This document shows positions 20,286-24,143 of a DNA stretch of 40,994 nucleotides, one piece after another (position 1 is the stretch's first letter; the number at the start of each line of letters is the position of its first letter). The stretch covers positions 1 through 40,994 of the forward strand of contig JBGTGT010000024.1 in NCBI GenBank assembly GCA_041746575.1. The letters run 5' to 3'. A model generated the notes under the pieces. That model had not been told where the DNA came from, ran no database searches, and worked only from the letters and a program-made list of their open reading frames with translations. A program made the translations under genes and the position numbers. This DNA is from Microcystaceae cyanobacterium. GTDB lineage: Bacteria; Cyanobacteriota; Cyanobacteriia; Cyanobacteriales; Microcystaceae.

Positions 20286-22250
20286 TTAGAAGTTGAAAGT
20301 ACCGCGGAGTGTACCAATCCACTCGTCGTCGGAGTTAAAGAATTGGTCAGGGTTGGAAATCCAGATCACACCGGGGGTTAAAGAGATATTGTCGGTGACT
20401 TGGTATTTGTAGAACAATTCAACGTGAATCGGAATCGAACGGCTTAAGGGTTGATCAGAGCCTAAGGCGCCGGCAAGGTTATAACCACCAAAATAGGGTT
20501 GCGCACCACCAAAGAGCCCTAAGGTGCTTCCTTCTTTGAGGAAGTCAGGGATGGCAATACCACCACCATAAGTCCAGATGTCACCGTCACCTGTATTTAA
20601 CAGAATAACATCGGTATAGGTTACATAACCGCTGATGCTGGCAAAATCGAAGAGGTTAAAGGCAACTTCTGCGCCATAGCTATTGGTAACCTTCCCATTA
20701 AAGTTATTAATGAAGTTAGAGGTGGGTTGAGCGTTAAATGCGTCTGAAGCAGGAAATTCAATCGTTTCTCCCGGTACATCCGTGTTTACAACAAACGATC
20801 CTTGGTTGAAGGCATTCGAGAAACCGGTTGTGGACAAGTTCGCTGCCGTTGTTCCCACTAAACCCGTGCTATTGGTTGCACCCGAACCGAAAATCGCACT
20901 GTCTGCACTGTGGTAAGCATGAACGTAAGTGAAGCCAATGTTAACGATATCAAAGAGGTTAGTATTCAATTGACCTAACGCACCATAGTTACCATTAAAT
21001 AAACCAGCTCCTTGAGAGGGATCAGCCGCCGTACCCGATAAGTAACCAGCTGTGAAGGAGGAAGGTCCTAAAATGTTTTCAAGGAATCCTAATTGTAAGC
21101 TGAAGCCAGCCCCAGCACCACCGCCAATACGGTAGATGGGGTTACGTTGAGCGAAGGTACTTAACGAACCATTACCGCCGTCGTAGTCTTCAAAGTAGGG
21201 GTTGAGGGTGGGGGTGAAGTCATCCCACAAACCGCCGAAACCGGCGACATAGGTCTGAAGCTTCAACCATTCGGTGAATTCGATGGGAGTGTAGTAGGCT
21301 AACCAGTCAATGATGACGTCATTACCCGTTTGGGTATTCTGCCACGTTTGCAAGGTCAGTGGGAGAGTAGAGGAACCGGGAACAAACCAGCCATTAGTGC
21401 CAATCGATTGTCCCTCTTCATTTTCAGTGAAGAAGGTCGCTGGGACTTCTTCAGGTCCTGTGGTGAAGGGAACAGCATTGCCGGCCGCTAAACGAGTAAC
21501 TAAACGGTCAGAGCCAGTGAAACTGGTATTAAAGTTTAAACGAACCCGATCTTGGAATACGAACTGGTTATTATTGCCCCCAAAAGAGCCGGTCGCTCCA
21601 AAGATTACTTCCCCAGCTAGTTTAGTGGTGGTGGAAAATGTATGATCTTCTAAGAAAGCCACGCGACCTTCAAGGTTATCAACCCGTGCGCCTAAAGCGG
21701 CGAGTTCGGCTTGATATTCTTCCATTAAGCGTTTCAGTTTATCAATATCTTCTTGAAGTACCGCTACGTTTTCTTGGATTAAACGCTCCATCACGTTCAT
21801 ACAAGCGTTTAAACCGGCGGCAAATTCCCAACGGGTTAAGGCGCGGTTGCCACGGAAGGTTCGATCCGGATAACCGACGATACAGCCGTAACGTTCAACC
21901 AAACTGCGTAAGGCTTCATACGCCCAAGCGGTAGGTTCAACGTCGCGAAGTTCGTTGACGCTGGTGACTTGCTCAATGCTCGCATCTTGTCCTTCGCTAC
22001 CATAGGAGTCGATTTGATTGAGAATATCAGCGTCTTCAGTGGTCTGAAGTTGAGCAATTTCTGGGTTGCTTGCGTCGAATGCAAAGTCTTCAGTGGTCTG
22101 AAGTTGAGCAATTTCTGGGTTGCTTGCGTCGAATGCAAAGTTTTCTGCCTGTGCGGTTACCTCAACGGCACGAGCAGCAGGAGCGATCGCCAAGGCGATT
22201 CCTAACAAGGCTGGACTGACTAATAAGGACTTACAAAGTAAGTTTTTCAT
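20286..22250 (-). CDS. SomA/B-type SLH-domain outer-membrane porin (OprB/iron-uptake porin family)
   Basis: Signal peptide, SLH (DVEPTAWAYEALRSLVERYGCIVGYPD...TRWEFAAGL), coiled coil, FSTTTKL-GE and a beta-barrel ending in Phe. Confidence 0.93.
   Translation of the reverse strand: MKNLLCKSLLVSPALLGIALAIAPAARAVEVTAQAENFAFDASNPEIAQLQTTEDFAFDASNPEIAQLQTTEDADILNQIDSYGSEGQDASIEQVTSVNELRDVEPTAWAYEALRSLVERYGCIVGYPDRTFRGNRALTRWEFAAGLNACMNVMERLIQENVAVLQEDIDKLKRLMEEYQAELAALGARVDNLEGRVAFLEDHTFSTTTKLAGEVIFGATGSFGGNNNQFVFQDRVRLNFNTSFTGSDRLVTRLAAGNAVPFTTGPEEVPATFFTENEEGQSIGTNGWFVPGSSTLPLTLQTWQNTQTGNDVIIDWLAYYTPIEFTEWLKLQTYVAGFGGLWDDFTPTLNPYFEDYDGGNGSLSTFAQRNPIYRIGGGAGAGFSLQLGFLENILGPSSFTAGYLSGTAADPSQGAGLFNGNYGALGQLNTNLFDIVNIGFTYVHAYHSADSAIFGSGATNSTGLVGTTAANLSTTGFSNAFNQGSFVVNTDVPGETIEFPASDAFNAQPTSNFINNFNGKVTNSYGAEVAFNLFDFASISGYVTYTDVILLNTGDGDIWTYGGGIAIPDFLKEGSTLGLFGGAQPYFGGYNLAGALGSDQPLSRSIPIHVELFYKYQVTDNISLTPGVIWISNPDQFFNSDDEWIGTLRGTFNF
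22032..22139. repeat. Perfect 54-bp tandem duplication in the porin N-terminus
   Basis: 22032-22085 is identical to 22086-22139 and encodes FAFDASNPEIAQLQTTED twice. Confidence 0.97.
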
Positions 22251-22475: not shown

Positions 22476-22716
22476 TAAAAACTATCCGCTCCTGCGAACA
22501 ATGCCCTTCGAGAACATTTGTTACAGGAGCGGTCTAGACGGGTCTTCGCTAATCACAACCTGACTGCCGGAAGAAGCGCTAATTTGATGATTTTGTCCGA
22601 GACAAGTCACTTGTTTAGCGAATGGCTCCGGCACACAGCCGGCTGTTGTTGATTAGGAGACCCATGATTTTACTACTATCACTCACGGGCATCACCTCCT
22701 TATTTGCCTAAACGGT
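22476..22716 (-). ncRNA. Structured ~240-nt transcript (sRNA or microprotein mRNA) ending in a terminator hairpin
   Basis: Long-range complementarity 22645-22663 with 22540-22559, hairpin CCGGC-TGTGT-GCCGG and terminator stem 22486-22532 followed by a U-run. The ends are inferred. Confidence 0.6.
22615..22686 (-). CDS. Candidate 23-aa microprotein MSDSSKIMGLLINNSRLCAGAIR
   Basis: Perfect SD TAAGGAGGTGA (22692-22702) 5 nt before GTG 22686. Stop TAA at 22615-22617. Confidence 0.5.
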   Translation of the reverse strand: MSDSSKIMGLLINNSRLCAGAIR

Positions 22717-22745
22717 CTATCATTTTTAAAGTTTCTCCAAAAAGC

Positions 22746-24143
22746 TTAACGTAGTTTTTCGGAAAAAGCAAGACAAGCTCGATAAAATTTTTCGGCGATC
22801 GCTGAAATTCTGCCAAACTGAAGGTGTAAATAGGAAGCAAACAGGCGTTGTATTTGCCATCCATCGGCAGTCAATTGGGTTTGCGCCGAGAGTCCTTTTA
22901 ATTGAAAAACGGGGTGAGAGGGTAAATGGGTAAGAAAAGAACGATGAAATTCGTGACCCCAGAGAGATTCAGTCGCACAAATTAGCCAATTTTCTTGAAT
23001 ATTTGTCATTTTACGATAGCCCAGCGTTAATTTTTGCCCCATAATCGCCTTGGTGGGAATAATTTCTATCATAGGGTAAAAGCGATCTTGGAAATCAACA
23101 ATTCCTTGACTAAGATACATCAATCCCCCGCATTCGGCATAAGTTGGCATTCCTGCTTGAATACGTTGGCGAATTTCTTGAATAAGAAAGGTATTTGCGC
23201 TCAAATCTGCGGCGAAGACTTCAGGGAAGCCACCTCCCAAGATTAACCCCCTACTGCCTCTCGGTAACTGAGTATCTTGTAAAGGACTAAAAAAAGCTAA
23301 ATCTGCCCCTAATAATTGTAATAATTCTAAATTCTCTGGATAGTAAAAATTAAACGCTCGATCACGAGCAATGGCAATTTTAATCGGCTGAGGAGATAGG
23401 GAAACGATTGGGAAATTTTGGGGTTGAACGTTGCCCCCCCCCGATGGAGGGGATAGCAAGGGGTAAAGATCATCCCAATTAAAAGATCTTTTGGCAAAAT
23501 GTGCCAATTTATCAAGAAAATGAGACAAATGAGGGATTTCATCGGTGGGAACTAATCCTAAATGGCGATTAGCCATCACGAAGTCATCTTGACGGCGAAA
23601 TACACCTAAAATAGGCATTTGAATTTGATTCAACCCATCCGTTAATAATTCTAAATGGCGATCGCTACCTACTCGATTCAGGATCACCCCTGCTAAGTCA
23701 ATCTGAGGGTCGAAGGTGCGATAACCAGAAGCAATGGCGGCAACAGAACGGGATAAATGGCGACAATCAAGCACTAAAACCACAGGAATCTTAAGAATGC
23801 GGGCAATGTGAGCAGTACTGGCGTAATCCTTAACCCAATCTTGATCGCTCGGTTGAAAATGAACGCCATCAAATAACCCCATCACGCCTTCTATTAGGAC
23901 ATAGTCCATCCCTTGGCAATAATTAGCAAAACGCCATTTGACATCCGTTTCTGAGGTGAGAAGGGGGTCAAGATTGCGACAGGGACGACGGGTGATGACA
24001 GTATGAAACATCGGATCGATATAATCAGGGCCGACCTTAAAAGATTGAACTTTATCACTTCTTTGACTTAAAACAGAAAGGAGAGCTAAGGTAATGGTGG
24101 TTTTTCCGCTCCCGCTTCGTTCACCTGCGATAATTAAAGCCAT
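22746..24143 (-). CDS. cobB: Cobyrinate a,c-diamide synthase (CobB/CbiA)
   Basis: SGSGKTT, FKVGPDYIDP, EGVMGLFDG, RHLGL, AFNFYY, AECGGLMYL and GHEFH motifs. Confidence 0.95.
   Translation of the reverse strand: MALIIAGERSGSGKTTITLALLSVLSQRSDKVQSFKVGPDYIDPMFHTVITRRPCRNLDPLLTSETDVKWRFANYCQGMDYVLIEGVMGLFDGVHFQPSDQDWVKDYASTAHIARILKIPVVLVLDCRHLSRSVAAIASGYRTFDPQIDLAGVILNRVGSDRHLELLTDGLNQIQMPILGVFRRQDDFVMANRHLGLVPTDEIPHLSHFLDKLAHFAKRSFNWDDLYPLLSPPSGGGNVQPQNFPIVSLSPQPIKIAIARDRAFNFYYPENLELLQLLGADLAFFSPLQDTQLPRGSRGLILGGGFPEVFAADLSANTFLIQEIRQRIQAGMPTYAECGGLMYLSQGIVDFQDRFYPMIEIIPTKAIMGQKLTLGYRKMTNIQENWLICATESLWGHEFHRSFLTHLPSHPVFQLKGLSAQTQLTADGWQIQRLFASYLHLQFGRISAIAEKFYRACLAFSEKLR

Follow-up and report, generated by a model that had tools for sequence, protein, structure and literature searches.

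The window (the whole stretch of DNA that was analyzed, 40,994 nucleotides of a contig from a Microcystaceae cyanobacterium) carries on its minus strand, between cobB and the gene for a SomB-type porin, a compact unit with a putative promoter, a maximal Shine-Dalgarno (SD) sequence, a microORF, a long rod, and an intrinsic terminator (Table 1). The SD at 22700-22691, the 5-nt spacer between it and the GTG at 22686, and the 23 codons up to a TAA ending at 22615 were found as the initial annotation had read them, and the long terminator stem that it had placed at the end of the unit was likewise present (22537-22477). Pairing of the SD was assessed with 16S tails from genomes G019 (same family), G258 (Chloroflexota), and G014 (G000 has no assembled 16S); it reached 11 contiguous pairs with the 3' tails of G019 and G258 and was longer than 11 bases with the 16S region of G014. 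The SD 10-mer occurs nine times in the 4.2-Mb genome when both strands are counted. The region folds with a z score of −4.73, and none of 200 shuffled sequences was equally stable.

Table 1. Features of the unit and its neighbors in the window
Feature	Position	Strand	Basis or remark
Putative sigma-70-type promoter, TTGCTT-17 nt-TAAGCT	22743..22771	-	Sequence; similar box in homologues
Small 5' hairpin, CCG-TTT-AGG	22707..22715	-	Directly before SD; common to most Chloroflexota members
Maximal Shine-Dalgarno	22691..22700	-	Core invariant in 52/52; 11 contiguous pairs with 16S tails
MicroORF, 23 codons, GTG start, TAA stop	22615..22686	-	SD, start, and stop conserved in homologues
Anti-RBS within codons 7 to 11	22655..22666	-	Predicted to pair with SD/spacer/start (lock) or 3' arm (rod)
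Long rod, ORF codons 8 to 23 with noncoding 3' arm	22540..22663	-	Covariation and folds
Apical stem capping the rod	After microORF stop	-	Variable among members
Intrinsic terminator hairpin and U run	22477..22537	-	−29 kcal/mol; present in homologues, sequence variable
cobB, upstream neighbor	22746..24143	-	NCBIfam
SomB-type porin, downstream neighbor	20286..22250	-	Own −10 box at 22318-22313

The 5' end of the RNA probably lies about 20 nt further up than first annotated, near 22736, to judge from the −35/−10 pair at 22771-22743. A TTG-type −35 element, similarly spaced relative to the SD, was present in 22 of 52 cyanobacterial and 11 of 20 Chloroflexota loci. The cobB stop codon falls inside the putative −10 box (22748-22743, minus strand). 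A promoter scan returned no plus-strand promoter inside the unit, and a candidate antisense promoter in the AGUAGUA block was discarded for lack of a correctly spaced −35 box.

Family membership and conservation

Judged by its sequence, the element is a member of the family known as ncl0160, TU475, and Sye_sRNA1, the RNA of which has reportedly been known since 2011 without an assigned function. The ncl0160 rows in the supplement of PMC4734099 carry the same SD, start, ORF, 3'-arm, and terminator-base blocks (a match by eye, not by alignment), and the ORF in its Arthrospira rows is identical to that of locus L102. The window also has the family's 23- to 25-codon ORF with an ATG or GTG start after an RBS and its position downstream of cobB or psbD, here cobB. 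PMC4734099 counts 83 homologues for ncl0160 and describes an RBS together with a probable peptide of 23 to 25 amino acids. According to PMC6091082, Sye_sRNA1 is about 200 nt long and Northern verified, ranks first in abundance among sRNAs in the control condition, has TU475 as a homologue, and usually lies downstream of psbD or cobB; section 13 of that paper handles it as an sRNA and leaves the ORF unmentioned. TU475 is labeled ncl0160 in PMC8682795. The family is thus described as a pan-cyanobacterial RNA of about 200 to 280 nt, among the most abundant non-rRNA transcripts, and the passages devoted to it in PMC4734099 and PMC6091082 assign it no function. Expression is established for homologues from this literature. 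With the SD, start context, ORF, rod, terminator base, and upstream cobB or psbD in common, we found no difference in kind between published members and the element in the window.

A possible homology to PmgR1/Ncr0700, raised in the initial annotation, had to be abandoned. PmgR1/Ncr0700 is likewise an abundant cyanobacterial sRNA of comparable length, but it is unrelated in sequence and has neither the SD-start block nor the rod motifs; every conserved motif is absent from the Ncr0700 sequence as published in PMC6596454. The known cyanobacterial sRNA to whose family the element does belong is ncl0160. Rfam 15 gave nothing at or above the gathering threshold in the window, and the element was unmatched by Rfam in 15 further loci, 11 of them from Chloroflexota.

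By DNA search, the element was present in 38 of 41 related genomes, with a single copy in G000. The SD, start codon, 23 to 24 codons, and stop were complete in all 30 loci first returned and in the 9 fetched later, and the SD was invariant in the 52 aligned sequences. The proposal of a discrete structured RNA with a conserved SD and microORF was thus borne out among relatives, in which SD, ORF, and terminator are present and the rod covaries. A pattern scan of genome contigs gave at least 120 matches; among the matches listed, 85 were members of the cyanobacterial type, 7 were loci from Chloroflexota, and 28 had no relation to the family. Within the order to which the window belongs, a 16-letter core pattern matched in 101 of 106 genomes, and a subset of these matches was inspected. 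It matched in 2 of 14 genomes of one small-genome family (one inspected, a nonmember) and in 11 of 165 genomes from other classes of the cyanobacterial phylum (8 inspected, no members). In the deep-branching cyanobacterial loci L050, L261, and L264, the stop stands at codon 17, a length typical of the Chloroflexota form. The early Ser run has grown to four or five codons in L059, L071, and L113, with the frame intact.

Neighboring genes varied. Of the nearest downstream ORFs in 82 cyanobacterial loci (some of them redundant, with ORFs called mechanically), 24 encoded porins, 28 encoded pterin-4a dehydratases, and 30 had other or unidentified products; 17 of these ORFs lay on the opposite strand. 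The upstream neighbor in 69 cyanobacterial loci was CobB in 25 and Photo_RC in 13. Control of read-through into the porin, as the initial annotation had envisaged, found no support in these counts, and the porin had its own TATAAT-type −10 box in 13 of 17 porin-linked loci; no conserved downstream gene that relies on the promoter of the unit, as expected of an attenuator leader, was found.

The porin RBS region itself (22266-22257, minus strand) carries GGTGTGAGGA, complementary to the conserved Yfr1 motif as quoted in PMC4734099, and such a complementary 9-mer was found in 14 of the 17 porin-linked loci; this region is a likely Yfr1 target site. The segment encoding the porin N terminus contains a tandem duplication of 54 bp at 22032-22145 (2.1 copies, 98% match), by which 18 residues are repeated.

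Predicted folds of the RNA

Pairings were evaluated in an alignment (A1) of 52 of 107 extracted sequences, selected at less than 88% identity and at most 215 nt; seven loci had been omitted before alignment because their 3' ends were not located. The long-range pairing of the ORF with the 3' arm, noted in the initial annotation, was strongly upheld: 94.1% of the cells were paired, 19 of 32 pairs had changed on both sides, and none of 500 shuffled alignments did as well. Two shorter pairings from the same source fared differently. That of 5' UUUAGGC with GUCUAGA was paired in 60.5%, with 442 of 500 shuffles equally good, and was rejected, whereas the local CCGGC hairpin found weak support: it was paired in 92.7% but is palindromic, two of its five pairs had changed on both sides, and 6 of 500 shuffles did as well. 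Members replace the terminator sequence freely, and no conserved antiterminator was seen.

RNAalifold placed a hairpin in A1 that joins the spacer and start codon to codons 7 to 9. When extended into the SD, this helix, which we call the lock, was 90.5% paired with one-sided changes only; the invariant SD side accounts for the lack of two-sided covariation in cyanobacteria. The ORF bases of the lock also form the foot of the rod, and the two folds therefore exclude each other. The median cost of opening the RBS was 11.5 kcal/mol in nascent RNA (fragments ending at codon 14), compared with 5.7 kcal/mol in the longer RNA and 7.0 kcal/mol in shuffled fragments. The nascent cost exceeded that of the full-length RNA in 50 of 52 cyanobacterial and in all 20 Chloroflexota sequences, and in 23 of 26 members of a second Chloroflexota set. 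For the copy in the window, full pairing of the start codon is predicted to persist up to completion of the 3' arm. At two third-codon positions, which face G in the lock but have no partner in the rod, the base was C or U in 50 and 51 of the 52 sequences, while codon 7 encodes nine amino acids.

These computations predict that, while the RNA is still nascent, the anti-RBS in codons 7 to 11 locks the SD together with the start codon, and that the covarying 3' arm later captures the anti-RBS and opens the site; both folds and their order come from modeling. The idea of alternative folding in the initial annotation was therefore correct in principle, but the actual alternative would be this RBS-locking hairpin, which it had missed. 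With two exclusive folds and opening costs of 11.5 versus 5.7 kcal/mol, the translation-coupled structural switch that it had listed among its options appears the likeliest mode.

Selection on the microORF and the Chloroflexota form

The reading frame was kept throughout the cyanobacterial loci, in which insertions comprised whole codons. Among the 52 sequences, codons 5 (AGT) and 9 (GGT) had no synonymous change, and the stops were UAG in 34 and UAA in 18; UAG is read by RF1 alone. By parsimony, dN/dS of the microORF was 0.64 to 0.83 in these sequences, and in the same 18 genomes it was 0.80 for the microORF and 0.30 for the neighboring gene. Constraint on the RNA lowers the synonymous rate about fourfold relative to the neighbor and therefore inflates dN/dS. 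The nonsynonymous rate was also lower, at 1.38 per site compared with 2.02 for the neighboring protein, so that the microORF may after all encode a functional peptide. Cys18 was swapped for Arg, Trp, or Tyr, and codon 14 took 12 amino acids, while Ala21 had 13 synonymous and 2 nonsynonymous changes. An S-K-R-M-G run was found both in cyanobacteria and in one group of Chloroflexota, the two using different codons for Lys and Arg. Overall, these patterns point to selection on the frame, the AGU codons, and the UAG/UAA stops more than on the amino acids. Pfam had no family for any of five peptides, an exact-sequence lookup of six peptides in a protein collection found none of them, and the best 19-residue hydropathy window did not exceed 1.26, so that none of the 52 peptides reached 1.6, i.e., none has a membrane helix.

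Members were also found in Chloroflexota. In the phylum of an Anaerolineales genome, a long pattern matched in 33 of 301 genomes (0 for the reversed control), and 25 of 30 loci inspected were members; in a looser search, 81 of 251 genomes matched, and 26 of 45 loci inspected were members. Overall, at least 40 of 251 Chloroflexota genomes had a member, among which one had a shifted start and one, L182 (G201), had lost its stop codon, its ORF running on through the terminator. These members have a sigma-70-type promoter, mostly a small 5' hairpin, the same SD, 13 to 20 codons, an anti-RBS, and a terminator, together with a 3' copy of the SD-spacer segment that acts as a decoy. In the L173 group, spacer and anti-RBS have changed together. 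The short rod of this form covaries, with two-sided changes in 6 of 11 pairs in 36 of 40 picked sequences. Peptides of the Chloroflexota groups share little beyond the residues dictated by the RNA.

A further pattern, which fixed neither frame nor length, was applied to metagenomes, and no taxonomy was assigned to its matches. Among the 119 matches listed, 115 were readable and 113 had 13 to 23 codons, and the distance from AUG to the anti-RBS was 14, 17, 20, or 23 nt in 117 of the 119. In the same list, AGU made up 142 of 167 early Ser codons, compared with 318 of 3,376 (9%) in the background, and the stops of 90 matches were UAG in 62, UAA in 26, and UGA in 2, compared with 109 UGA among 227 background stops (48%); the background, long ORFs on the same contigs, is a rough one. 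In the phylum of an Oscillibacter genome, the core pattern matched in 17 of 201 genomes, and none of the 17 inspected was a member. For the phylum represented by a Kitasatospora genome, matches came from 13 of 201 genomes, and 15 of the 16 matches were inspected without yielding a member; phage and plasmid collections had none either. The unpublished genomes G691 and G203 enter solely the tallies of 13 of 201 and 81 of 251.

Possible function of the unit

Translation of the unit would be in keeping with Grad-seq data for Synechocystis. In the data set of PMC8136920, ncl0160 has one maximum in fraction 7 (26%) and another in fractions 14 to 18 (about 32%, heavy fractions pooled), and its 3' part falls in an rRNA cluster; the profile, taken from the ncl0160 rows without those of control sRNAs, is suggestive of one free and one ribosome-bound state. 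We found no ribosome footprint or peptide for any member in PMC5126843 or the preprint 10.64898/2025.12.20.695498, the supplements of which may list the locus, or by the peptide lookup.

We propose, with a probability of about 0.5, that the unit is a translation-coupled switch that serves its function by being translated, probably as a ribosome probe or buffer, assuming that it is translated in vivo. It would be a stand-alone, strongly transcribed mini-mRNA. In nascent RNA, or in RNA without its 3' arm, the anti-RBS would fold onto the SD and start codon and block loading, and it would presumably relock the RBS in the wake of a ribosome that had opened the rod. Once finished, the 3' arm would draw the anti-RBS into the rod and bare the maximal SD; only intact molecules would therefore load ribosomes, plausibly one at a time. 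The selected trait would be the act of translation, with the frame, the tandem AGU at codons 4 and 5, and the UAG/UAA stop under constraint and the amino acids largely free. Its likeliest purpose would be that of an abundant probe or buffer of ribosomes, the fold and stability of which may report initiation, AGU decoding, and RF1 termination. What the proposal builds on is established: the element is conserved, its rod covaries, its location is independent of particular neighbors, its frame and codons are biased, and homologues are expressed according to the literature. Neither an output nor a target could be assigned to the switch. More tentatively, and with odds against it, abundant mini-mRNAs that act as ribosome probes may form an old class common to Cyanobacteria and Chloroflexota, in which a self-locked maximal SD and a dummy ORF with a fixed AGU and an RF1-read stop would drive a futile translation cycle that senses or buffers the ribosome pool and yields no useful protein.

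Several other explanations were weighed. The unit may instead be the mRNA of a functional microprotein, with the lock restricting synthesis to complete transcripts, uncoupled from transcription. The frame, start, and stop kept everywhere, the nonsynonymous rate below that of a real neighboring gene, the largely synonymous changes at Ala21, and the N-terminal S-K-R-M-G shared across phyla all speak for a peptide, but radical swaps are frequent, as at Cys18 and codon 14, the length varies from 13 to 25 amino acids, the C-terminal six residues are missing in three cyanobacterial loci, and the Chloroflexota groups share little past RNA-dictated residues, with no Pfam match for the peptides; we regard this explanation as the main rival, though a less likely one than the switch. 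That the RNA is a noncoding decoy, which would engage the 16S tail of 30S subunits, free or still immature, through its SD and not be productively translated, is improbable: a maximal invariant SD, very high abundance, the heavy-fraction Grad-seq peak, and the fact that the main text of the Synechocystis Ribo-seq preprint (10.64898/2025.12.20.695498) does not name ncl0160 would suit it, but the frame steps of three and the UAG/UAA bias would be left unexplained.

Two explanations that draw on known regulatory RNAs are less probable again. A cis-acting attenuator or leader that sets read-through into the porin, with the tandem Ser codons as sensor, would accord with the porin being nearest downstream in 24 of 82 loci and with tandem AGU codons that have grown to three to five Ser in a few loci. 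Such a role is nevertheless very unlikely, given that 58 of the 82 loci have another gene downstream, that the nearest ORF is on the other strand in 17 loci, that the porin has its own −10 box, and that the terminator is freely replaced with no conserved antiterminator seen. The trans-acting attenuator leaders rnTrpL/peTrpL, as described in PMC7968998, likewise combine a short tandem-codon ORF and alternative folds with a terminator, whereas here no downstream operon is conserved and the switch would act on its own RBS rather than on the terminator. We give hardly any credence to a type I toxin mRNA with an overlooked antitoxin. ORF-embedded anti-SD hairpins active during transcription are known for the Helicobacter aapA3 toxin mRNA, in which, in the account of PMC6733600, a hairpin partly in the ORF hides the SD during transcription, as predicted here. 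In the window, however, completion of the transcript would open the site, so that the full-length RNA would be the open form; no hydrophobic toxin with a membrane helix and no antitoxin were seen; and, unlike type I toxin mRNAs, the family is very abundant and occurs as a single vertical copy that was not found in phage or plasmid collections.

The translation-coupled switch, probably a ribosome probe or buffer, remains our preferred reading. Relative to the literature searched, the self-locking RBS, the Chloroflexota form, and the codon-level selection are new, while the family itself is already published; the published accounts of ncl0160/Sye_sRNA1 that our searches found describe neither an RBS-locking fold nor a noncyanobacterial member, although the supplements of PMC12873609, PMC5126843, and the preprint 10.64898/2025.12.20.695498 may list the locus. 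The RNA is among the most abundant nonribosomal RNAs of model cyanobacteria, and its two-state fold, codon-level selection, and compact Chloroflexota form make its function testable. These findings hint at a housekeeping class of RNA, present in two phyla or more, that has been overlooked by Rfam and gene callers.

Some nonmembers were recorded as observations in their own right. In a genome from the Oscillibacter phylum, L199 (near 1500, minus strand) has a maximal SD and a 10-codon ORF in a long rod with a 3' arm, with the family motifs absent. L201 (1500-1761, plus strand) has a six-codon ORF with a maximal SD and a hairpin directly upstream of a glmS ribozyme. L198, L258, and L259 have hydrophobic ORFs of 23 to 39 codons with a maximal SD and hairpins nearby, resembling type I toxin genes.
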